Shown piece after piece: positions 1 to 63,127 of a stretch of 64,000 nucleotides of DNA. The DNA comes from Thermoanaerobaculia bacterium (GTDB lineage Bacteria; Acidobacteriota; Thermoanaerobaculia; Multivoradales; Multivoraceae). The stretch lies in the NCBI GenBank assembly GCA_963664405.1, contig OY761158.1, positions 5,248,001 through 5,312,000 of the forward strand, written 5' to 3'. The notes under the pieces were generated by a model. The model searched no databases, was not told where the DNA came from, and worked only from the letters and a program-made list of their open reading frames with translations. Position 1 is the stretch's first letter; each line of letters begins with the position of its first letter. A program made the translations under genes and the position numbers.

Positions 1-320
1 AGCGTAGCCGGATCTGGCTGATCACGAGCACTGCATTGATGGCGGGTGTGGTGACGGCTTTCTGTGGTCCGATCGGTTTTCTCGGTATCGCCGTGCCGCA
101 CCTCGGACGTGGCCTTCTACAGACCTCCGACCATCGGGTTCTGCTGCCTGGTATTGCACTCCTCGGGGCGAGTCTCGCCTTGATCGCGGACCTCCTGTCG
201 CGACTTCCGGGGAGCTCCCTGGTCTTGCCTCTCAACGCGATCACGGCGCTTCTCGGGGCGCCGGTGGTGATCTGGGTCATCGTGCGCCGGCGCGGCCTGC
301 GCGACTCCTTCACCGGATGA
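1..320 (+). CDS. FecCD/BtuC-family iron-siderophore/cobalamin ABC permease, 5'-truncated by the window edge
   Basis: GPIGFLGIAVPH and LPLNAITALLGAP motifs of the FecCD C-terminus; stop overlaps the next ATG (ATGA). Confidence 0.9.
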   Translation, partial: RSRIWLITSTALMAGVVTAFCGPIGFLGIAVPHLGRGLLQTSDHRVLLPGIALLGASLALIADLLSRLPGSSLVLPLNAITALLGAPVVIWVIVRRRGLRDSFTG

Positions 321-31872: not shown

Positions 31873-32229
31873 CTACGAGAAAGCGCACTTAGTTGGCTGC
31901 GAGTCGGTTTTTTGTCCCCGCGAGGCGTGACTCAGGGTGTGGCGCAGATAGTCGAGGTACCCCTCGGGGGGTGGCGTCGTGGGGAGTTCTCGGAGGATGG
32001 GGAGAAAGTAGGCGAGGGATCGGATGGGCTGGAGCTTTGGTAGGCGCGGATCTCGGCATGCGCGTCGGGCGGAGCCGAGGAGGAGGGCGGCCTGGAGGAC
32101 GGTGAGAGGCAGGTCTTGGTCGAAGAGCTGGTCGACGATGACGCGGTCGCCGTGGTGGAAGCGGTGCGGGGTGTCGGGAAGGAGTCGATAGAGGCGGAGG
32201 AGCTGGCGCCGATAGTGGCTTCGGGTCAT
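31873..32229 (-). CDS. IS-encoded hypothetical protein downstream of istB
   Basis: ATG overlaps the istB stop (ATGA); helical protein with IRSLAYFLP motif; ends inside the terminal IR. Confidence 0.7.
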   Translation of the reverse strand: MTRSHYRRQLLRLYRLLPDTPHRFHHGDRVIVDQLFDQDLPLTVLQAALLLGSARRACRDPRLPKLQPIRSLAYFLPILRELPTTPPPEGYLDYLRHTLSHASRGQKTDSQPTKCAFS

Positions 32230-33020
32230 GAGCGTCGTCGTGCTGCGCTCCGCCTTTTGGCGCGGTCCTTGGCCTTTTTTTCAGCAGCCTCCTTGGCCTC
32301 CTTGCGGCGATAGGAGTTAGCCTCGATCTTGACGATCTCGGCGTGGTGGGTGAGTCGATCGACGAGAGTGACGACGCAGGAGGCGTTGGGAAAGACCTCG
32401 GCCCATTCGGCGAAGGGCTTGTTGGTGGTGAGAAGAATGGGCTTGTTGCCGTATCTCCTGGAGACGACCTCGAAGAGGAGATCCGCGTGGCGGTGGTCGT
32501 AGGAGAGATAGCCGAGCTCATCGATTGCCAAAAGCGAGGGTCGGGTGTATTTGGAGAGCCTTCTCTGGAGCGCCGAGGGGGTTTCCTGGACGGCGAGATC
32601 GTTGAGCATGTCGGAGGCGGTGACGAAGCTGGCGGTGGCCCCTCGTTGCAGCGCCTGGTAGAGGAGGTTCTTGGCAATCATGGTCTTGCCGACACCGTTG
32701 GGTCCGAGGAGGATGACGTTGGTGATGTCGTCGAGGAATTGGAGGGTGAGCAGATCCTGGATCTGCTCGCGGTCGATGCGCTGGGGCCAGGAGAAGTCGA
32801 AGTCGGCGATGCTCTTGAAGAGCCCGACGCGGCTGGTGCGGATGCGCCGTTCGAGGCTGCGCCGTTTGCGCTCGGCCTCTTCTTTGCGCAGCAGCTGTTC
32901 GAGCCAGGGCTGTTCTCGGTAGGTGCCCCAGTCGTCGACGAGGGCGTAGAAGCCGAGGGATCGGGCGAGCTCTCGTAGTGGTTCGTCAGGGATCGTTGGA
33001 CTCTTCCTGGGTCGGGCCAT
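32226..33020 (-). CDS. istB: IS21 helper ATPase IstB
   Basis: DFDFSW, GPNGVGKT Walker A, LLAIDELGY Walker B, TTNKPF.EW, DRLTHH. Confidence 0.95.
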   Translation of the reverse strand: MARPRKSPTIPDEPLRELARSLGFYALVDDWGTYREQPWLEQLLRKEEAERKRRSLERRIRTSRVGLFKSIADFDFSWPQRIDREQIQDLLTLQFLDDITNVILLGPNGVGKTMIAKNLLYQALQRGATASFVTASDMLNDLAVQETPSALQRRLSKYTRPSLLAIDELGYLSYDHRHADLLFEVVSRRYGNKPILLTTNKPFAEWAEVFPNASCVVTLVDRLTHHAEIVKIEANSYRRKEAKEAAEKKAKDRAKRRSAARRRS

Positions 33021-34494
33021 CGTCGTTGCCTCCAAGTTGGTCGTAGTCCTCGAGGTTGTGCGGTCTCACGGAGAGATCTCGCTGTTGGAGCTCCTGGCTG
33101 AGCGGCACCGGTAAAGCCGGGGGCTGACCGAGGCCGCGCTGGTGCCGTTCGAGTAGGAGCCGGACGGACTGGAATCGCGGTGCGTGGTTCAGGAGCGCTT
33201 CGCGCACGGCTTTGTCGAGTCGCTGGGGGCCGTACTGGCGCAGGAGTCGGAGCAGGCCGGCGGTCTGCGTTCCGAGGTTCTCGCCTCGCTCGGCGAGCTG
33301 CTGCATCAGCTCTTCGCATCGAGGCACAGCGGAAAACAGCCGATGGAAGCCCCGGTGTCGTCGGGCCCTGCGTTTGTGAGCGAGGAGCTCCTCGAGGTGT
33401 TGAGGATCGAGGATCTGCTCGCCCCGGGAGTACGAGCGAGGGTGCTCGGCGAGGAGCTCCTGGCCATCGAGGATCCGCACCCGATGCTCGCTGGCGAGGA
33501 GCGTGACGGTCCTCTGCACATGACTGTGCGGCACCGAGTAGTCGTTGAGGTCGAAGCGCACGATCGGCGTCTTTCTGACCTTGATCTCCAGTCGCAGGTC
33601 GGTTTCGAAGTCGTCTCCGGGAAGCTCAAGCAGTCGAGGTCGTTCCTGGGCCAGGGCGCTTTTCACGGTTCGCTGTCGGTCCTGCGGCCAGGGTCTGCGC
33701 TGCGACCTCTGGCACCATTCCAGGACCTGCCGATTCAGACGATCCAAATCGCTCACCGTTCGGGCGCCGAAGAACGAGCTTCGCAGGAAGCGGATTGCGC
33801 GCTCGACGCGGCCTTTCTCATTTCCCCGAGCCACCGCGGCGACGGTGGGAAGGAAGCCGTAGTGGCTGGCGAAATCGAGCAGCACGGGATGGAAGCGCAC
33901 CGCGGTTCCCTGCCGCTCGATCACCGCGGTTCGCAGGTTGTCGTACAGAACGGTCCTGACGACGCCGTCGACGTAGTGGAAGGCCAGCTGGTGAGCGTGC
34001 AAGAAGGTTTCGAGACGAGTGTCGAGGGTGAAGTGCACGAAGACCGTGCGCGAGAACGACAGCACGAAGACGAAGGCATAGAGCCGACGATGTGCCCGGC
34101 CGACGCGGAGCCGACCGAAGTGGCCCCAGTCGACCTGCGCCTGCTCTCCTGGCAGCATGCGCAGCGAGAGAAACGCCTCGCGCTGGGGCTTCGGTCGCAT
34201 CGAGGCCACCAGGTGGCGAAACTGATCCGGGCCTCCTGGATAGCCGCGCTCCACCACCATGGTGTAGAGACGGCTCGCCGGCAGTCGTGGGTAGGTCCCG
34301 AGCACCTGCTCGATGAACGGCAGGTAAGGATCGATCATCCTCCCTCGTCGCTGCTGGGGTAGCACGCCGGACTTCTCCAGCGCCCGGCGCACGGTTGAGG
34401 GGTGCAGCTGTAGCTGTCGAGCGATCGTGCCGACTTTCCACTTCTCGACCAGGAACAGACGACGGATCTCCCCGCGCAGCTGTGCGTCGATCAC
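32986..34494 (-). CDS. istA: IS21 DDE transposase IstA
   Basis: N-terminal HTH, PGEQAQVDWG, LSFSR, YDN, EKGRVER, FDLNDYSVP; GTG start at 34494. Confidence 0.95.
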   Translation of the reverse strand: MIDAQLRGEIRRLFLVEKWKVGTIARQLQLHPSTVRRALEKSGVLPQQRRGRMIDPYLPFIEQVLGTYPRLPASRLYTMVVERGYPGGPDQFRHLVASMRPKPQREAFLSLRMLPGEQAQVDWGHFGRLRVGRAHRRLYAFVFVLSFSRTVFVHFTLDTRLETFLHAHQLAFHYVDGVVRTVLYDNLRTAVIERQGTAVRFHPVLLDFASHYGFLPTVAAVARGNEKGRVERAIRFLRSSFFGARTVSDLDRLNRQVLEWCQRSQRRPWPQDRQRTVKSALAQERPRLLELPGDDFETDLRLEIKVRKTPIVRFDLNDYSVPHSHVQRTVTLLASEHRVRILDGQELLAEHPRSYSRGEQILDPQHLEELLAHKRRARRHRGFHRLFSAVPRCEELMQQLAERGENLGTQTAGLLRLLRQYGPQRLDKAVREALLNHAPRFQSVRLLLERHQRGLGQPPALPVPLSQELQQRDLSVRPHNLEDYDQLGGNDDGPTQEESNDP

Positions 34495-34498
34495 GCCC

Positions 34499-34894
34499 CT
34501 ATCTCCGTCGGCAACGACGAAAGCTCGTTCGCACAAACTCTCGGCAGGCCTCTCCACACTGCATGCATCGCGGATTCCTCGGGTCGTAGCGCACTTCGCG
34601 CCTCGGAGTCTCGATCCGACACAGTGTCCTCCCCGAAGTACCGCCTGGGGTACCCTGATGCGTCACTTTCTCTGCCCGCTCGCGCTGGCGCCGACGGTAG
34701 CGGGCCTGACGGGCGGCATGACAATGCCGACCTCGGAGGCTTCGCTGGTACCGATGGCCGGCCGCCCGAGTCGATTCCCGACGAGCCACCAGAGCACAAG
34801 CCCGGCAGTAACGCTGGCCACGGTCACAGTGCGAGCACAGCGAGATACGCCGACGGCATCGAGCACAGTCGAAGAGTCGGTAGTCCGGTCGCAT
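34499..34894 (-). CDS. IS-encoded Cys/Arg-rich putative Zn-binding protein upstream of istA
   Basis: GGGAGG RBS; CARC..CSHCDRGQRYCRAC, AARQARYRRR, C-terminal CMQCG; stop 4 nt before the istA start. Confidence 0.75.
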   Translation of the reverse strand: MRPDYRLFDCARCRRRISLCSHCDRGQRYCRACALVARRESTRAAGHRYQRSLRGRHCHAARQARYRRRQRERAEKVTHQGTPGGTSGRTLCRIETPRREVRYDPRNPRCMQCGEACREFVRTSFRRCRRR

Positions 34895-38175: not shown

Positions 38176-38252
<77 letters not shown>

Positions 38253-48474: not shown

Positions 48475-49062
48475 CTAGCGGTGCTTGCCTACGCTCCAAC
48501 CTGCGGAGGCAAGCGTGTCTTCGGCGTAGCTCCGCGGGCCGTTTTCCAGGCTGGTCGCCAATGTATCGTTCCACCGGTTGAGGAAGCCGAAAAGCGAGAT
48601 CACGGCAACGATCTCGACGATCTCATCGTCGTCGAAGTACCGGCGTAGCTCCTTGAAGTGTTCCTCTTCCACCTGGTTCGGAGTCACGCCCGCGTCCTTG
48701 GCGAGGCGCAGCGCCGCCTTCTCGCGCGGGGAGAATAGTGGGCTCGGCTCGAACTCCCAAACCGCTTGGATCTTTTCGGCAGCGGAGCCGGCCTGCGCCG
48801 CTGAGTGGGATGTGTGTGCCTGACAGTAGCGACAGCCTGCCGCGGCCGAGCTGACCAGAGCGACCAGCTGCTTGAGCTCTCGCGAGAGGCGTCCGGGCTC
48901 GAGAATCGGTTTGGCCAAGGCAGCGAACCCGCGAACCAGAACCGGCCAGCGGGCCATCGTCAACATGCTGTTCGGTACGAAGCCAACCGAATGCTCTACG
49001 GCATCCAGAAGAGGCTTCAATTCGGATAGGTCCGGTCTCTCTAGGGGCTCGACTCTGGCCAA
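48475..49062 (-). CDS. Carboxymuconolactone decarboxylase/AhpD-like peroxidase family protein
   Basis: GFVPNS, GCRYCQAH, EIVEIV..ISLFGFLNRWN. Confidence 0.88.
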   Translation of the reverse strand: MARVEPLERPDLSELKPLLDAVEHSVGFVPNSMLTMARWPVLVRGFAALAKPILEPGRLSRELKQLVALVSSAAAGCRYCQAHTSHSAAQAGSAAEKIQAVWEFEPSPLFSPREKAALRLAKDAGVTPNQVEEEHFKELRRYFDDDEIVEIVAVISLFGFLNRWNDTLATSLENGPRSYAEDTLASAGWSVGKHR

Positions 49063-53569: not shown

Positions 53570-54745
53570 ATGTTGTCTTCCTTCGTCGTTCTGGTCGGCG
53601 CCGTCCTCGGCGCCGTTGTTTTGGGCTTCTGGCTCCTCCTCCTGACCGACCGCAGTCGGGCCTGGCCTCGTGAGCTCTTCTTACGGCACTCGGGGCCGCC
53701 TCGGTTTGAGTCTTCGGTAGCCGTTCTCGTCCCGGCTCGCGACGAGGCCGCGATGCTGCCGCTGACATTGCCTTCGCTGCTCAATCAAGACTTTGGCCGC
53801 TACGAGGTTGTGGTCGCCGACGACGGCTCGAGTGATGGGACGGCAGAATTGGCGATGGGGCTCGCGGAAGAGACTGCCGGCTCGGTGGCGGTTGTGATCT
53901 GCGCCCCGAAACCCACAGGTTGGGCCGGAAAGGTCCATGCCCAGCAATGCGGTCTGGACGCGATTCTCGGCAGTGGCGCGGTTCCTGAGTGGATGCTCCT
54001 ATCCGATGCCGATATCCGTCATCCTGACGACTCCTTGTCTTCGTTGATCGCCCAGGCGCAGCGCGGCGGCTACGACATGGTCTCGGTGATGGCCCGGCTC
54101 CACGCCGGCAGCTTTTGGGAGCGCCTGCTGATCCCTCCCTTCGTTTTCTTTTTCAACCTTCTCTACCCCTTTCGTAGCGTCCGCCACCGTTCGTCCGAGG
54201 TCGCCGCGGCCGCCGGCGGGTGCGTTCTGGTCCGCACCGCCGCCCTGGTCGAGGCCGGTGGCTTTGCGGCGATTCAGGGGGAGTTGATCGACGACGTCGC
54301 ACTGGCCCGTCTGCTCAAGAGCCACCACCGGCAGCTATGGCTCGGCTTCGATCCTCAGATCGAGTCGGTTCGCCCTTACCGCTCCCTCGCCGAGCTATGG
54401 GACATGGTCGCTCGCAGTGCCTTTGTTCAGCTCGGCTACCGGTACTGGTTGGTGCCCCCGGTCGCTCTCGGGCTGGCGATATTCTTCGTCGGCCCGCCGG
54501 TGTTAGCCCTAGCCGGCTTTGCCGCACACAGTGCGATCATCGTTCTCCTTTCGTTGGCTGCTTGGCTGCTTCAGGCCTTTCATCTTTATCCTTATGGCCG
54601 CCACCATCGGGTCCCTGCCGCCTACAGTTTCCTGCTGCCTCTAGCTTCGGCGTTCTACGCTGCGATGACTGTGAGCTCGGCGTGGCGCCACCTCTTGCGC
54701 CAGGGCTCGCGTTGGAAGGAGCGCGACTACGGGAGCTCAGAATGA
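53570..54745 (+). CDS. hpnB: GT2 glycosyltransferase, hopanoid-associated HpnB-like
   Basis: VPARDEA, DDGSSDGT, GWAGK, DADI, ERLLIPPFVFFF.LLYPF, AAAGGC, IDDVALA, MVARSAF.QL. Confidence 0.8.
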   Translation: MLSSFVVLVGAVLGAVVLGFWLLLLTDRSRAWPRELFLRHSGPPRFESSVAVLVPARDEAAMLPLTLPSLLNQDFGRYEVVVADDGSSDGTAELAMGLAEETAGSVAVVICAPKPTGWAGKVHAQQCGLDAILGSGAVPEWMLLSDADIRHPDDSLSSLIAQAQRGGYDMVSVMARLHAGSFWERLLIPPFVFFFNLLYPFRSVRHRSSEVAAAAGGCVLVRTAALVEAGGFAAIQGELIDDVALARLLKSHHRQLWLGFDPQIESVRPYRSLAELWDMVARSAFVQLGYRYWLVPPVALGLAIFFVGPPVLALAGFAAHSAIIVLLSLAAWLLQAFHLYPYGRHHRVPAAYSFLLPLASAFYAAMTVSSAWRHLLRQGSRWKERDYGSSE

Positions 54746-55197
54746 GCGAGGTCACCGTCAGAAAGATGCGGCCCTCCGAGTTGGACCTGGTGGCCGAGCT
54801 CTGGTGGCACAGTTTCGACGACTCGACCCAGTGGCTCCGCCCCGACCAGAAGCACCCCCTGGCGGAAGCGCTGAGCTTCTTTCGCACCGTTGTAGCGAAG
54901 CGTTGCGAGTTATGGATAGCGATGCGTGAGGAGGCAATTGTCGGCTTACTGGCAATGCACGGAGACGAGGTCGATCGTCTCTACGTTGCCACCGAAGCAC
55001 AGAAGCAGGGCATCGGAGGTACCCTCCTCGATCACGCCAAGGCGTTATCTCCGGACGGCCTCCGTTTGGTCACCCTGCAGCGCAACACGCAGGCACGTCT
55101 CTTCTACGAGCGCCACGGTTTCGCCGCCTTCGACACCGGCTGTAGCGCTCCTCCGGAAAACGAACCGGACATCTGGTATCGCTGGCCCAGCTGGTGA
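54742..55197 (+). CDS. GNAT N-acetyltransferase
   Basis: LYV...QKQGIGGTLL, N..ARLFYERHGF, ENEPD; ATG overlaps the upstream stop. Confidence 0.85.
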   Translation: MSEVTVRKMRPSELDLVAELWWHSFDDSTQWLRPDQKHPLAEALSFFRTVVAKRCELWIAMREEAIVGLLAMHGDEVDRLYVATEAQKQGIGGTLLDHAKALSPDGLRLVTLQRNTQARLFYERHGFAAFDTGCSAPPENEPDIWYRWPSW

Positions 55198-55291: not shown

Positions 55292-56743
55292 ATGATGATG
55301 AGTGCTGCTCTTCAACGCCTTGGCGACGGCTTGGTGGCGGTTGTCAAAGAGGATTGTCCGACCTGCAAATTGGTGACGCCGGTGCTGCAGGAGCTCCGCT
55401 CCTTGGGAGTCGGCGTGCAGGTGGTGACTCAGGACGACCCCGACTTTCCAGAGGGGCTCGAGGCGATCGACGATCGCGATCTCGAGATCTCTTACCGTCT
55501 CGAAGTAGAGGCGGTGCCTACTCTTTTCAAGATCGAGCAGGGCGAAGTCCTTGATCGTCGTGTGGGCTGGAACCGTCAGGAGTGGCGCGATTTCACGGGC
55601 GTCGAAAGCTTGGGTCTCGAGATGCCTGAGTATCGACCGGGGTGTGGGTCTCGAACCACCGAGCCTGGCGCTGCCGAGCGACTCAAGGTGCGTTTTGACG
55701 CTTCCTCGCTCCAATCTCGGCGAGTGGAGATTGGCGGCGAAGAGGATCCGATCGAAGCTTGCTACGCACGAGGTTGGAGCGACGGCCTGCCGGTGGTTCC
55801 GCCGACTCCCGAGCGGGTGGAGCGCATGCTGTCCGGAACCCGTCGCGACCGCGCCGAGCTGGTGGCGGTGGTACCGCCCGATTACGCCGAGTGCACGGTC
55901 GAGAAAGTCGCAATCAGCGCGGTCATGGCCGGCTGCCTGCCCGAGTACCTGCCAGTGGTGATGGCGGCAGTGGAAGCGGTTTGCACCGACGAGTTCAACA
56001 TCCACGGCCTCGCCGCCACCACGATGGCGGTGGGACCGGTGGTGATTGTCAACGGTCCGATCCGACAGCGGATCGGGATGAACTCGGGTATCAACGCGCT
56101 CGGGCAAGGGAATCGTGCCAACGCCACTATCGGTAGAGCGTTGCAACTGGTGGTGCGCAACGTGGGCGGAGCCCGTCCCGGCGGCGTCGACCGCGCCACC
56201 CTGGGCAATCCCGGAAAGTACACGCTCTGTTTTGCCGAGAACGAGGAAGACTCTCCCTGGGATTCTCTGGCGCAGGAGCGCGGAGTCGAGGCTGAGGCCT
56301 CAGCTGTGACCGTCTTCGGCGCCGATGCGCCGCACCTGGTGATAGATCAGCTCTCTCGCACGCCGGAATCGCTTGCCATCTCCCTCGCCGGTACGTTGCG
56401 CGCATTGGCGAACGCCAAGCTCGTCCTCGGTTTCGATGCCTTCATAGTCATCGGCCCCGAGCACGCCAGGGTTTTCTCCGACGGAGGTTGGTCGAAGGCG
56501 CGGTTGCGCCAGGAGCTGCTCGAGATCCTGACCATGCCGGCGGCCGATCTGGTGCGGGGAGCCGGGGGCTGCGCCGAGGGGCTACCGGAGTCTTTCTCTA
56601 GCGAAGAGGTCTGCAAGTTTGGCAACGATGCCCTGTGGTTCGTTCATGCCGGGGGAAGGGCAGGAATGTTCTCGGCGGTGATGGGAGGCTGGGCGCGTGG
56701 CCCGCGAGGGAGCATGCCGGTGACCAGGGAGGTGAAAGAGTGA
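55292..56743 (+). CDS. Thioredoxin-like (CPTC) domain fused to a conserved domain of unknown function; partner of the UGSC selenoprotein
   Basis: KEDCPTC, EAVPT, RPGCGS, GWSDGLPVVPPT, EKVAISAVMAGC, NRANATIGRAL, ENEEDSPW. Confidence 0.85.
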   Translation: MMMSAALQRLGDGLVAVVKEDCPTCKLVTPVLQELRSLGVGVQVVTQDDPDFPEGLEAIDDRDLEISYRLEVEAVPTLFKIEQGEVLDRRVGWNRQEWRDFTGVESLGLEMPEYRPGCGSRTTEPGAAERLKVRFDASSLQSRRVEIGGEEDPIEACYARGWSDGLPVVPPTPERVERMLSGTRRDRAELVAVVPPDYAECTVEKVAISAVMAGCLPEYLPVVMAAVEAVCTDEFNIHGLAATTMAVGPVVIVNGPIRQRIGMNSGINALGQGNRANATIGRALQLVVRNVGGARPGGVDRATLGNPGKYTLCFAENEEDSPWDSLAQERGVEAEASAVTVFGADAPHLVIDQLSRTPESLAISLAGTLRALANAKLVLGFDAFIVIGPEHARVFSDGGWSKARLRQELLEILTMPAADLVRGAGGCAEGLPESFSSEEVCKFGNDALWFVHAGGRAGMFSAVMGGWARGPRGSMPVTREVKE

Positions 56744-57258
56744 GCGAGAGTACGTTGTTGGACCCGACCAGCGAGCGCCAGCCGTCTCGGCGGGCAGCCG
56801 CTCCACGTCTGCCGGCCATCGCCGGCCGAAAAATTGGGCTACTCGATATATCGAAGGCGCGTGGCGATGTCTTCCTCGACCGGGTCGAAGAGAAGCTGAC
56901 CGCCGGCGGCGCGGAGGTGCTGCGTTTCGCCAAGCCGACCTTTACCAAGCCCGCGCCGGTGGACCTGCGCCAAGAGATTGCCCAACGCTGTGACGCGGTC
57001 ATCGAGGCTCTCGCCGATTGAGGGTCCTGCACGTCGTGCAGTGTGCATGACATGACTGATCTCGAGAGCCGCGGTATCCCGACCGTTTTCGTCGCGTCTT
57101 CGGAGTTTGTTGATGCCGCGGTGGCGCAGTCGTCGGCTCTAGGTTCCGACTCGCCGCGAGTCTTCGTTCCTCACCCGATCCAGGATCGCACCGACGAAGA
57201 GATCCTGGCACTGGCCGAGGCGGCATTTGACGAGATTGTAGGTGGATTGCTTCAGTAG
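56740..57258 (+). CDS. UGSC-motif selenoprotein, 172 aa; UGA at 57019-57021 read as Sec94
   Basis: GTG overlaps the upstream stop; ..EALAD-U-GSCTSCSVHD...RGIPTV...VPHP continues in frame to TAG at 57256-57258; SECIS-like hairpin at 57033-57051. Confidence 0.9.
57033..57051 (+). promoter_or_regulatory. Putative bacterial SECIS element of the UGSC gene
   Basis: GUCGUGCA-GUG-UGCAUGAC (8 bp, one G-U); loop begins after 19 nt downstream of UGA and starts with G. Confidence 0.65.
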
Positions 57259-57571: not shown

Positions 57572-58579
57572 GTGAGAGAGGTAGAGAGTTTCGAGACCAG
57601 TGAGGGGCGCCATATCTACGCTTTGCCGATCGAGGCTTTCCCCGACTTCTTTGTCAACATCTATGTGATCAGCGACGGCGAGCGGCGCTTTCTGGTGGAT
57701 TGCGGCTCGCCGATGGAGAAGTCGAATCGCGACCTCGTGGCCGCGCTGGAGACGGCCAGCGAGCGTTTCGGCGAGCCCCTGTCGCTCGCCACGATGGATC
57801 TCATTTTCATCACCCACGGTCACACCGACCACTTTGGTGGCCTCCCCTTCGTGCGTAGGCATACGGACGCCCCGATCGGGGTCCATGTGCTCGATCGCCG
57901 CATCCTTTCGCATCACGAAGAGAGGGTGATCGTCGCTTCCAAGCACCTCCAGGTCTATCTCGCGCGCTCCGGCCTGTCGCAAAACGCGCGACAGGGACTG
58001 ATGCAGATGTATCTCGCGCCGAAGAGCATGTATCGCTCGACCGAGGTCCAATTCGAGCTCGAGGAGGGGCCCCGAGCGGAGGACGGTGTTGAGATCTTTC
58101 ATGTTCCGGGTCATTGCCCGGGCCAGGTTTGCATCCGGGTCGACGACATTCTGCTGGCCGCTGATCATGTACTGTCGCGTATCACTCCGCATCAGTCGCC
58201 TGAGTCGATCACTCTCAATATGGGTCTGGGTCACTATCTCGACTCTTTGACCAAGATTCAGCCCATGGAGGGAATCCGCCTTACGCTCGGGGGGCACGAG
58301 AATCCGATGGAGGATCTCTTTGGCCGTGTGGGCGAGATCAAGGCGTCCCACGACGAGCGCCTCACTAAGGTGCTCGATCTGTGCCGGAGCGAGCCGCAGT
58401 CGATCGCCGCGGTCTCGAAGTCTTTGTTCGGTGACGTCAAGGGCTACACGGTGCTCTTGGCGCTCGAGGAGGCCGGCGCGCACGTCGAATATCTCTACCA
58501 GCGCGGGGAGCTGGTGGCCGGAAATGTCGAGGAGCTGCGCGATCAGGAAGAGCCTGTGATTCAGTACCAGGCGGAGTGA
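57572..58579 (+). CDS. MBL-fold metallo-hydrolase with C-terminal wHTH-like domain
   Basis: LVDCG, THGHTDHFGG, PGHCPG, ADH, GGH. Confidence 0.9.
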   Translation: MREVESFETSEGRHIYALPIEAFPDFFVNIYVISDGERRFLVDCGSPMEKSNRDLVAALETASERFGEPLSLATMDLIFITHGHTDHFGGLPFVRRHTDAPIGVHVLDRRILSHHEERVIVASKHLQVYLARSGLSQNARQGLMQMYLAPKSMYRSTEVQFELEEGPRAEDGVEIFHVPGHCPGQVCIRVDDILLAADHVLSRITPHQSPESITLNMGLGHYLDSLTKIQPMEGIRLTLGGHENPMEDLFGRVGEIKASHDERLTKVLDLCRSEPQSIAAVSKSLFGDVKGYTVLLALEEAGAHVEYLYQRGELVAGNVEELRDQEEPVIQYQAE

Positions 58580-58644
58580 GAGCTGCCCCCTCAGCAGGTC
58601 TCATGTGGTACAAATGACAGCTCAGCTTCTACGAGTCGCGCACT

Positions 58645-59292
58645 TTGAAGATTCAAGGCGAACACTTCTTGGCCGCCCCACAGGACTTGGTCTGGGAGGC
58701 CCTGCTTGACGCGGAAGTACTTTCGGCCACGGTCCCTGGCTCGCAGGGCCTCGAGCAGATTTCCGAGAACGAGTTTGAGGGCAAGCTGAAGATCAAGGTG
58801 GGCCCCGTACAGGGTGTCTTTCAAGGGAAGGTCTCTCTCTCCGATCTCGAGCCCCCGAGCAGTTATCGCATCAAGATCGAGGGCCGCGGACCCGTCGGTT
58901 TCATGAGCGGGGACGGGACCGTCAAGCTCAGCCAGAGCGACGGAGGGACGCTTCTAGGCTACGACGTCACGGCGCAGATCGGAGGCCGCATCGCCGGCGT
59001 GGGTCAGCGCTTGATGGACAGTACTGCCAAGGTGATCACCCGCCAGACCCTGGAAGCTCTGGGAGCCCAGATCGAAGCACGAGCGGCGGACGACGCTGAG
59101 GACGTGGATGAAGAGGGAGCGGTCGAGCCCGCCCCGCCGCCGCGACCGGCGACGGAGTCGGAGTTTGCCGCACAAGTCGCCAAGGGCGTGGTAGCCGAGC
59201 TGGTGCCCGAGCAGTACCGACGTATGGCTGTAATGGCCATCGTGGGCCTGGGGGCCGCCGGCGCCGTTCTAGCGCTTCGGGGGTGCGGCTGA
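58645..59292 (+). CDS. coxG: CoxG/SRPBCC family protein with C-terminal membrane anchor
   Basis: [23 protein letters not shown], terminal TM helix; TTG start. Confidence 0.88.
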
Positions 59293-59422
59293 TGCCGGAA
59301 CGCTCTCGAGAGGCTTGGTATGGTCGAATGAGAACGCCTGGGGTCCCGGGACTCGGAGCAGGGATCGCGTGGACTTGTCGCAGTAGCAGAGAATGGGCGG
59401 TCGGAAAACCTCGGAGGTGTGT

Positions 59423-59893
59423 ATGAAGCACAGAGTTCGAATGGAAGTAAACGGATCAGCGGTCGAGCGTGAGATCGAGCCGCGCACACTTCTTGTCCAT
59501 TTCTTGCGCGAGGATCTGGCGCTGACCGGCACCAACGTCGGCTGTGAGACGAGTCTGTGTGGCGCTTGCACCGTTCTCATCGACGGCCAAGCGGTGAAGT
59601 CGTGTACCCAGCTCGCGCTACAGGCGGAAGGTCGCAGTGTGACGACGATCGAAGGGTTAGCCGAAGACGGCGAGCTTCACCCGCTCCAGCAGGAATTCTG
59701 GGACAACCACGGTCTGCAGTGCGGATATTGCACTCCTGGAATGATTCTGTCCTCGGTCGCGCTGCTGAGCGAGAACCCGAGTCCAACAGAGGAGGAGATC
59801 CGCAATGGTCTCCGAGGCAATCTGTGCCGCTGCACTGGCTACCACAACATCATCAAGGCGGTGAAGGCTGCCGCCGCCGGTCAGGGGACTTGA
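59423..59893 (+). CDS. coxS: (2Fe-2S) small subunit, CoxS/CutS
   Basis: [31 protein letters not shown]. Confidence 0.93.
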
Positions 59894-59894
59894 T

Positions 59895-62264
59895 ATGGGA
59901 GTCCTAGGAACCTCCATCAGACGTCGAGAAGACCCGGCTCTAATTACCGGCCAAGGCAAGTACACCGACGACCTGACCCTGCCGGGCATGCTCCACGCCG
60001 CGATGGTGCGCAGCCCTCATGCACACGCACGGGTGAAGAATGTCGACGCTGCGGCCGCGCTGGCCCTGCCAGGGGTCACGGCGGTTTACACCGCCGCCGA
60101 CGTCGAGGCGAGCGCTCTGCCGGGAGTCCTTCCCGTAGCCTGGCTGCTGCCCGGTCTCAAGACCCCCGCCCATCCGATCCTCGCCGGAGATACGGTGCGC
60201 TATGTTGGCGATGCAGTTGCCGTCGTCGTCGCCGAGGACCGGTATCTGGCCAAGGATGCCGCTGACCTGGTGGAGGTGGAGTACGAGCCTCTGGGCTCGG
60301 TCACAGACCCGGCTCTGGCGGTTCAGGAAGGAGCGGTCCAGATCCATCAGGAGGCGGAGCGGAACATCGCTTTCGACTGGGACATCGGCGATCGCGAGAA
60401 GACCGATGCCGCGTTCGCTGTCGCCGCCAGCACGGCCGAGATCGAGCTGCGTAACAACCGTCTGATCCCTCACGCTATCGAGCCGCGAGCGGCGCTGGCG
60501 GACTTCGACACCATCGCCGGCAAGCTCACTCTGCGACTGACTTCGCAGAATCCACATGTACATCGGCTGCTCATGTTCCTCGCCTCGATTGGGCTGCCGG
60601 AGCACAAGATGAGGATCATCGCCCCGGAAGTGGGGGGCGGCTTCGGCAGCAAGATCGCGCACTATGCCGATGAGGCGATCACCAGTTTCTGCGCCATGCA
60701 GCTGGGGTGCCCGGTGAAATGGACGGCGACACGGAGCGAAACGAATCTCACCGACACTCACGGTCGCGATCACGTTACTCACGCTGCAATCGCGCTTGAC
60801 GAGGATCACAAGATCATTGGTCTCAAGGTGGAGACCCACGCGGCGCTCGGTGCGTATCTGTCGACTTTCGGCCCGGCGGTGCCCACCTATATGTATGCAC
60901 CCCTTCTTTCCGGGGCGTACGACATTCCGGCGATCCACGCCCACGTCCTCGGTTGCTTCACCACTACGACACCGGTCGACGCCTACCGCGGCGCCGGGCG
61001 TCCGGAAGCCACCTTTGTGATCGAGCGCCTCGTCGACCTCGCGGCGCTCGAGGTGGGCGTCGACCCCGCCGAGCTGCGGCGGAAGAACTTCGTGGTGCCG
61101 GAGAAGTTCCCCTACGAGACTCAGGTTGCTCTGACCTACGACAGCGGTAACTACGAGCCGGCCCTCGACCGTGCTCTCGAGATGGTCGGCTATGGCGAGC
61201 TTCGTCGAGAGCAGGCCCGCCGGCGCGAGGAAGGCGGCAATCTTCTTGGTATCGGCTTCTCGACCTACATCGAGGCCTGTGGCCAGGCCCCCTCGAAAGT
61301 AGCCGGCGCACTAGGTGCGCAGGCAGGCCTCTGGGAGAGCGCCGAAGTTCGGGTAAACCCTAGCGCCTCGGTGGTCGTCTTCACCGGCTCTTCGGCGCAC
61401 GGCCAGGGCCACGAGACGACCTTCTCCCAGATCGTGGCCGACCGACTCGGTATCGACATCGACGCGGTCGAGGTGGTCCATGGTGACACCGACCAGGTGC
61501 AGTTCGGCATGGGAACCTACGGAAGTCGTAGCGCTGCGGTCGGCGGAAGCGCCATCGCCAAGAGCGTCGACAAAATCATCGAGAAGGGTCGCAAGATCGC
61601 CGCCCACCTGCTCGAGGCAGCGGTGGAGGACGTCGACTTCGAAGACGGTCGATTCGGCGTAAAGGGAGCGCCGGATCAGAGCCTGGGGTTCGCCGATGTG
61701 GCACTGCAGGCCTACTTGGCCCACAACTATCCCGACGATTTGGAGCCTGGGCTGAGCGCGACTTCTTTCTACGATCCGGTCAACTTCACCTATCCCTTTG
61801 GGGCTCACATTGCGGTGGTCGAGATCGATACCGACACCGGCGCTGTGGGCTTGTTGAGATATGTCGCCGTCGACGATGTCGGCAACGTCATCAACCCGAT
61901 GATCGTCGAGGGCCAGATCCACGGCGGTGTGGCCCAAGGCATTGGACAGGCCCTCTGGGAGGGCGCGGTCTACGACGAGAGCGGCCAGCTGATTACCGGC
62001 ACGCTGATGGACTACGCTCTACCAAAGGCCCATAACCTGGTGTCCTTCGAGCTCGATCGCACCGTGACGCCCTGCCCTCACAACCCGTTGGGTGTGAAGG
62101 GAGTGGGGGAGGCCGGAGCCATTGCCTCTCCCGCCGCAGTGGTCAATAGCGTCGTGGACGCCTTGCAACATCTGGGAATCAAACACCTCGACATGCCCCT
62201 GACACCGGAGAAAGTGTGGCGGGCGATGTCAGACGCCGCGGATGGCGGCAACGGGAGCGACTGA
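59895..62264 (+). CDS. coxL: Molybdopterin-binding large subunit, form II CoxL-like (xanthine dehydrogenase family)
   Basis: GGGFGSK, AYRGAGR active-site motif, GQGHET, GTYGSRS, GQIHGG, KGVGE. Confidence 0.9.
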
Positions 62265-63127
62265 TGTATCCAGCGAAATTCGACTACTACCGCGCTTCGA
62301 GCCTCGAGGAGGCACTCGACCTACTCGAGAAGCATGAAGATGCCAAGCTTCTGGCCGGCGGCCACAGTCTGCTTCCGATGATGAAGTTACGCCTCGCGCA
62401 ACCACCGAGCGTAATCGATATCGGTGGCCTGAGCGATCTCTCAGGGGTGACTCGGGACAACGGCAGCATCAAGGTCGGAGCGCTCACGACCCATGCCGAG
62501 ATCGCTTCCTCGCCGGTTCTGGCCGAGTCCTGCGGCATTCTCGCTGAGGCCGCGGGCGAGATCGGCGACCAGCAGGTGCGCAATCGAGGCACCATCGGCG
62601 GCAATCTGACCCATGCCGATCCCGGTTCGGATCTCCCAGCGGTCATCAGAGTGCTCGACGCCACTCTCCACATGGTGGGGAAGGGCGGCGCACGCTCGGT
62701 ACCGGCGGCCGAGTTTTTCGTTGATCTCCTCACCACTGCGCTGGAGGAAAAAGAGATCTTGACCGCGGTGGAGGTTCCGGCTCTGGGGGCCGGAGCCGGC
62801 GCCAGCTATATGAAGTTCGAGCACCCTGCCTCCGGCTACGCTGTGGTGGGGGCAGCGGCGGTGGTGTCTCTCGCCGGCGATGGTAGTTGTGAGAGCGCCG
62901 CGCTCTACTTCAACGGAGTAACAGCGACACCGCTCGAAGCGGCGGGGATAGGTGCGGCACTGGCCGGGCAGAACCTCAGCGACGCGGTGATCGATGCCGC
63001 CGTCGACGCAAAGGTAACGGCCGAGGATCCCTTGGGCGATGTGTTTGCTTCGGGCAGCTATCGTCTGCATCTCGCCAAGGTCTATGGCAAGCGGGCCCTG
63101 CGTACGGCCCGAGATCGGGCGGCCTGA
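62264..63127 (+). CDS. coxM: FAD-binding medium subunit, CoxM/CutM
   Basis: [38 protein letters not shown]. Confidence 0.92.

Follow-up and report, generated by a model that had tools for sequence, protein, structure and literature searches.

The question raised by this locus is what a selenoprotein of the UGSC family does, and with what partner. In the available passages of PMC2398784 (Table 2), UGSC is the fifth most frequent selenoprotein family of the GOS survey with 255 sequences, while those of PMC1976440 and PMC13188914 give its function as unknown, the latter being a 2026 review in whose available sections the family is still uncharacterised. The window referred to below is the 64-kb stretch of DNA that was studied, in whose numbering positions are given; L and P designate relative loci and proteins, respectively. 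A first-pass annotation had proposed a coupled gene pair, the first gene carrying CPTC, a PGCGS linker and a large conserved domain, the second a U-G-S-C-T-S-C motif with a SECIS-like hairpin and split between open reading frames, and each of these elements was located as follows:

55292..56743, + strand: gene 1, 483 aa, a thioredoxin domain, a Cys-containing linker and a domain termed Unknown_1 (ORF translation)
55301..55603, + strand: thioredoxin-fold domain, residues 4-104, with CPTC at C22-C25, nt 55355-55366 (VIA-align, conservation)
55637..55651, + strand: PGCGS linker, residues 116-120, with C118 as the putative shuttle cysteine (conservation)
55709..56740, + strand: Unknown_1 domain, residues 140-483, a putative substrate-binding subunit (conservation, structure model)
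56728..56743, + strand: ribosome-binding site preceding gene 2, and the GTGA shared by the start and stop codons, a translational coupling (sequence)
56740..57258, + strand: gene 2, a selenoprotein of the UGSC family with 172 aa (scores over the PF24696 and NF041046 cut-offs)
56761-56769, + strand: N-terminal DPT arm of gene 2, docking on the partner in the model (predicted complex)
57019..57039, + strand: U-G-S-C-T-S-C motif (codon and homologue alignment)
57033..57051, + strand: SECIS-type (bacterial) hairpin with an 8-bp stem and a GTG loop (frozen wobble positions, pairing)

The GTG start of gene 2 (56740) overlaps the stop of gene 1 as GTGA (56740-56743), with GGAGGT positioned 6 nt 5' of that start. 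A species-genome scan yielded 609 confirmed stretches, and because the best 80 of the 609 were taken the genome loci represent close relatives only; within these best 80 of 609, a 4-nt overlap of the two genes was recorded in 44 of the 78 loci with a called start, under a start rule that favoured the nearest start and with L005, which had no called start, omitted.

Under translation table 11 gene 2 is divided into two frames, one ending at 57021 and the other beginning at 57043, the in-frame TGA at 57019-57021 corresponding to U94 and the terminal stop lying at 57258. When read through, the product scored 153 bits against the Pfam family PF24696 over residues 6-170 (cut-off 25) and 159.6 against the NCBIfam model NF041046 (cut-off 125), sequence scores that, with the conservation described below, confirmed gene 2 as a genuine UGSC-family selenoprotein and the read-through as beyond chance. 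The alignment of Sec with Cys in homologues, proposed at first pass as a check, bore this out: Cys occupies the U94 column in full-length homologues and plasmid copies, and the codon at that position was TGA in 77 of the 79 related genes among the best 80 of 609 loci, TGC in one and TAG in one. The hairpin begins 12 nt past the UGA. Its stability was not unusual against dinucleotide shuffles of a 62-nt stretch (z 0.46), but exceeded that of most synonymous recodings, of which only 53 of 2000 folded as stably as the native form; its four core pairs were standard pairs in all 78 TGA copies, the window included, and within it Ser was invariably AGT (66/66) and Val invariably GTG (43/43), flanking codons not being fixed in this way. 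This pattern of conservation indicates that the SECIS hairpin 3' of the UGA is under selection. In L069, the copy with the Cys codon TGC, the hairpin was absent. The copy with TAG at the Sec position (L076:1947-1949, a Geodermatophilus MAG) retains an intact hairpin, in agreement with the use of TAG as a Sec codon in UGSC genes of the Geodermatophilus family as given in passages of PMC5330540.

That the UGA is a true stop, leaving gene 2 split or a pseudogene, would accord with the termination of most database proteins at this Sec codon and with the finding that no tRNA-Sec, selA, selB or selD lies within the 64-kb window. It is contradicted by the conservation of codon and hairpin, by the TAG copy from a family with TAG-encoded Sec, and by tRNA-Sec genes lying inside the locus in 4 of the 11 loci scanned, and is regarded as exceedingly improbable. 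Genes for SelA or SelB adjoin the pair in 8/80 loci (best 80 of 609); in several Acidimicrobiia selA-selB and tRNA-Sec stand directly beside it, with selD also present in L009 and L016 (Sec machinery at L016:3445-7558, L017:4520-7556, L019:12-2793 and L009:9938-14333).

Gene 1 has at least 8000 homologues at E <= 0.001, and its AF2 model (pLDDT 90.2; 97.4 for the Unknown_1 domain) predicts a thioredoxin fold with an N-terminal CxxC. Residues 4-104 of that model superimposed on thioredoxin 6z7o with Z 10.1 and rmsd 2.2 over 92 aligned residues (VIA-align), and fold searches with the whole model returned listings occupied by thioredoxins; by sequence the domain fell below the Pfam and NCBIfam thioredoxin cut-offs. 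C22, C25 and C118 were each present in 119/119 close homologues. The Unknown_1 domain (140-483) matched no Pfam or NCBIfam model, and a search of clusters at 50% identity gave 5678 relatives. Its conserved residues comprise D164, C215, T243-T244, N277, R282, N290, D300, C313, E316 and H391, with N277 and R282 invariant in 108/108 diverse rows, C215 (within MAGC) retained in 134/140 rows and 20/21 plasmid copies, and C313 replaced in 7/21 plasmid copies whose UGSC retains CxxC; the conservation of these polar residues and of C215 suggests that a ligand-binding or catalytic site lies here. The best structural match to the domain reached Z 6.8 over 96 residues, and the domain alone gave no match at Z >= 8 among 48161 chains, nor among 977 chains, which is no proof of a new fold. 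PDB sequence searches returned weak thioredoxin matches for gene 1 and none for UGSC or the Unknown_1 profile, clusters retrieved by Atlas searches were unnamed or labelled 'thioredoxin' apart from one UGSC cluster, with nothing beyond UGSC, and no match was found in GenBank phages. Unknown_1, so widespread yet lacking any Pfam or NCBIfam model or a clearly matching solved fold, is thus a structural target. Tandem two-domain Unknown_1 partners of about 710 aa occur among the representatives.

Available passages of PMC2398784 give the link between UGSC and Unknown_1 as a fusion of unclear function, seen in 2008 (Fig. S1A) and covering the same stretch as the gene 1 domain. The present survey showed that the association extends to separate genes: UGSC lay directly downstream of the partner in 79/80 genome loci (best 80 of 609), the sole locus among these without a UGSC gene in its flank being L075 (L075:9038-9700), and beside or fused to Unknown_1 in 19 of 20 plasmid loci. 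The plasmid counts cover 20 of the 24 plasmid records with an Unknown_1 domain, and these loci are not independent, since they include two from Neorhizobium, two from Paracoccus and eight from haloarchaea. In addition, 23 of the best 150 Unknown_1 representatives carry UGSC sequence, with fusion in both orders; six are full-length N-terminal fusions, 12 begin past the Sec position, four end exactly before it and one is a short piece. Five longer fusions (P0393, P0403, P0409, P0410 and P0413) have the appearance of frameshift artefacts and were not counted. The functional coupling proposed at first pass is thereby upheld, and the pair is near-obligate and most likely makes up one enzyme. Among the haloarchaeal plasmids, L083, L096, L098 and L099 carry partner-UGSC-partner triplets, and L097 a partner without UGSC. 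The fusions at L088:7320-9044 and L090:7224-8909, which lie beside aconitase X and DUF126, have lost the catalytic Cys motif, so that the scaffold can persist without U/CxxC chemistry; they are possibly a non-redox offshoot.

The heterocomplex proposed by the earlier annotation was obtained as a predicted heterodimer from the natural Cys pair of L069. The complex prediction scored 0.84 against 0.00 for the best of three controls, where the mark is reached by 116/157 solved pairs and 2/215 mismatched pairs, a calibration only rough for this score because the homologous L069 pair was folded with custom alignments. Contact agreement between runs was at least 96% and partner pLDDT at least 91. The predicted interface of the L069 UGSC consists of the N-terminal arm (residues 4-14) and the Sec loop (95-104), the latter making contacts through residues 95-97, 99-101 and 104 with a partner surface that includes 231-237 (window 238-244), thereby placing the loop on the conserved Thr-Thr segment. 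No similar complex was found in PDB sequence searches. Of the elements whose possible convergence was raised at first pass (CPTC, the linker CGS and UxxCxxC), the model places the Sec loop at the interface; the thioredoxin domain and C118, like C215 and C313, were not among the confident interface residues.

The distribution of electron-supplying domains proved to be subfamily-dependent. A fused thioredoxin domain was present in 80/80 genome loci (best 80 of 609) versus 0/20 plasmid loci, with CxxC and the linker Cys both retained in 79/80 of the former, the remaining one having a sequence gap, whereas a thioredoxin reductase (TrxR)-like gene lay within 7-8 kb of 10/20 unfused plasmid loci versus 1/80 fused loci among the best 80 of 609. 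In P0412 UGSC is itself fused to thioredoxin reductase, in P0265 the partner domain is fused to the catalytic chain of ferredoxin-thioredoxin reductase, and AhpC/TSA-type domains are fused to the partner in other relatives. The fused fold, the TrxR neighbours and the UGSC-TrxR fusion support a thioredoxin system as the source of electrons, in line with the electron supply first suggested, and the built-in donor domain does exist here, although as a feature of this subfamily. The UxxCxxC motif fared likewise, being present in gene 2 with its third Cys found in 2 of the 17 CxxC-bearing plasmid copies. Because both the fused thioredoxin domain and the third Cys are limited to a subfamily, the core of the family is taken to be U/CxxC. 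A UGSC protein of Arthrobacter bears a C-terminal NifU-like CxxC domain.

The reading on balance favoured, and considered probable, is that the two proteins form a heterodimeric enzyme that, driven by thioredoxin, carries out the two-electron reduction of a small organic molecule. In the predicted complex the N-terminal arm of UGSC would dock on Unknown_1, with Sec94 at the interface beside H238-G239 and T243-T244; the partner would bind and orient the substrate through its conserved Thr, Asn and Arg residues, and the variable position 238 may set specificity. By analogy with U/CxxC chemistry, the selenolate would attack the substrate and Cys97 resolve the resultant adduct, yielding a selenenylsulfide and product. 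NAD(P)H would then reduce the Se-S bond again through thioredoxin reductase, in this subfamily by way of the fused CPTC and probably C118 and C100, and in other subfamilies by way of a dedicated adjacent or fused TrxR, the wiring being drawn from genomic context and the order of steps remaining a proposal. The substrate would most likely be an anionic, heteroatom-bearing small molecule imported for catabolism or detoxification, with an S-O, S-S, N-O or activated C-X bond as the candidate for reduction.

Such a substrate class was suggested by relatives rather than by the window subfamily itself: no conserved third gene accompanies the thioredoxin-fused subfamily in the 80 loci (best 80 of 609), and the catabolic context was therefore drawn from relatives of 30-50% identity. 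The unfused forms adjoin LysR, GntR and IclR regulators together with ABC, TTT, TRAP and MFS transporters, and lie near CoA transferases, lyases, hydrolases, malonyl-CoA synthase and acetate-CoA ligase, which points to small anionic substrates varying by subfamily, as judged from unfused and partly redundant loci. A phosphosulfolactate synthase gene is found near the pair in an actinobacterium (L081:3975-9815) and a haloarchaeon (L094:3847-8848), hinting at the handling of sulfite. DUF6282 recurs near the haloarchaeal partner gene (L082, L083, L094 and L097).

Within this reductase reading, the chemistry might be that of glycine/proline reductase protein B in a pyruvoyl-free form, in which Sec would attack a substituted carboxylate at its alpha-carbon, break a bond from carbon to N, S or halogen, and form a selenoether. 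GrdB-like cleavage is attractive because 55/82 UGSC proteins weakly match, around the Sec, the GrdB model TIGR01917 (E <= 0.1, best 5.1e-6) and 48/82 match GrdF, compared with at most four for each unrelated family; furthermore, neighbouring malonyl-CoA synthase and acetate-CoA ligase would consume the products. Like GrdB/F/H with GrdE and PrdB with PrdA, the present system places Sec in a UxxC(xxC) subunit, has a partner subunit and would depend on re-reduction by a dithiol; passages of PMC13188914 record UxxCxxC in GrdB also, and those of PMC11229817 describe a PrdB that couples Sec to a substrate-binding subunit. However, the likeness to Sec-dependent amino-acid reductases appears to depend on the motif, since upon its removal 0/60 C-terminal halves (the window copy and 59 of the 75 locus halves) matched Grd or Prd models, these being short fragments searched with filters that drop weak matches, and 0/21 divergent UGSC or fusion proteins matched at E <= 0.001. 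For these reasons the system was not filed under GrdB, and the pyruvoyl-free counterpart is rated as rather doubtful. Gene 2 itself fell far below the cut-offs of the GrdB/GrdF/GrdH/PrdB selenoprotein B models (21.4 bits against 602, and 16.2 against 65.45), the 15 Pfam families listed for the 82 members include no GrdB-type family, and the partner matched no GrdE or PrdA model. A scan of nearest neighbours covering 150 of 151 flanking ORFs, the long ones trimmed to 500 aa, detected neither a pyruvoyl-proprotein (GrdE/PrdA) nor GrdA, GrdC/D or PrdC. A GrdB-type protein is moreover about 430 aa in length versus 172 aa for UGSC, and, unlike glycine/proline reductase, UGSC extends beyond the clostridia across many phyla and into haloarchaea.

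Three further explanations relocate or dispense with the proposed reduction by Sec94. Were UGSC an electron carrier only, the catalytic thiol would reside on the large subunit as C215 or C313, for which the retention of C215, the fusion of UGSC to TrxR and the redox role proposed for C215 in passages of PMC2398784 can be cited; neither cysteine is among the residues confidently predicted to touch the Sec loop, C313 is lost in the plasmid copies already mentioned, and the explanation is deemed unlikely. Alternatively, the pair might be a non-redox lyase, isomerase or hydratase in which Sec or Cys acts as a reversible nucleophile that thioredoxin merely keeps reduced. The longest structural match to Unknown_1, which is to the alpha subunit of class I fumarate hydratase (7xky_A, with 184 residues aligned at Z 5.5 and rmsd 5.0, and a Foldseek E of about 1.3e-3), and the proximity of the Cys-less fusions to aconitase X would accord with this, but that weak whole-domain resemblance (Z 5.4-5.5) lies below the range in which the tool's scores are meaningful and is tied with unrelated folds. 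Identity to the class I (Fe-S) enzyme is 13%, there is no profile match (probability 0.1% against one fumarase sequence), and Unknown_1 has just two well-conserved Cys rather than a conserved three-Cys set; dedicated TrxR genes suggest stoichiometric use of electrons, and a non-redox role appears quite improbable. Trx-fused Msr architectures exist, as in PilB/MsrAB, where the thioredoxin domain feeds the catalytic site. A general oxidative-stress or protein-repair reductase acting on peroxide, protein disulfide or sulfoxide would be consistent with the stand-alone thioredoxin-fused subfamily, 51-68% identical across many phyla, with the selA/selB genes beside 8/80 loci (best 80 of 609) and with the AhpC/TSA-type fusions, and the N-terminal domain of PilB, likewise a fused CxxC thioredoxin domain, was among the fold matches of gene 1 (Z 8.0). 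Unlike PilB/MsrAB, however, catalysis here would fall to a separately encoded selenoprotein together with a domain without likeness to Msr, the large domain has no peroxiredoxin or Msr model or fold match, and relatives adjoin substrate transporters and regulators; this role is held to be no less improbable than the non-redox one.

A bolder and distinctly speculative proposal would make UGSC/Unknown_1 a large and so far unrecognised group of selenoenzymes dependent on thioredoxin, in both bacteria and archaea, that reductively cleave carbon-heteroatom bonds of small carboxylates without a pyruvoyl cofactor, whether C-S (sulfonates, thioethers), C-N (amines, betaines) or C-halogen, by means of a substrate-binding subunit of undescribed fold. 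If true, one of the most abundant selenoproteins of aquatic habitats would take part in the turnover of organic sulfur or nitrogen.

In a search of the literature other than subscription journals and preprint supplements, no description of the operon, complex or reaction was found, nor, outside subscription journals, a characterised cluster. The available UGSC/Unknown_1 passages include the claim of a Trx-like fold for the UGSC subunit (PMC2398784), and mention neither that the operon is near-obligate nor the predicted heterodimer, the links to the thioredoxin system or the catabolic neighbours described here; the parts were thus catalogued earlier, and their assembly into a thioredoxin-dependent enzyme seems to be undescribed. 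The partner, the electron supply and the all-Cys versions within transporter and regulator clusters of cultured strains make function directly testable; all-Cys pairs occur, for instance, in Arthrobacter sp. ERGS1:01 (gene order trxB-trxA-partner-UGSC), Roseovarius sp. THAF8 and Variovorax sp. SRS16.

As for the remainder of the window, the pair is flanked upstream (53570-55197) by genes for a GNAT acetyltransferase and for an HpnB glycosyltransferase that scores over its cut-off, and downstream (57572-63127) by those for an MBL hydrolase and CoxG followed by further ORFs, which from their translated motifs we take to be CoxS/L/M-type molybdoenzyme genes. On the opposite strand lie a gene for an AhpD/CMD-type protein with a CRYC motif (48475-49062), matching a YciW-related (seleno)protein model weakly and below cut-off, a tRNA-Pro gene (38176-38252), and two ORFs (32226-34557) that, by translation, presumably represent an IS21-type transposase pair.
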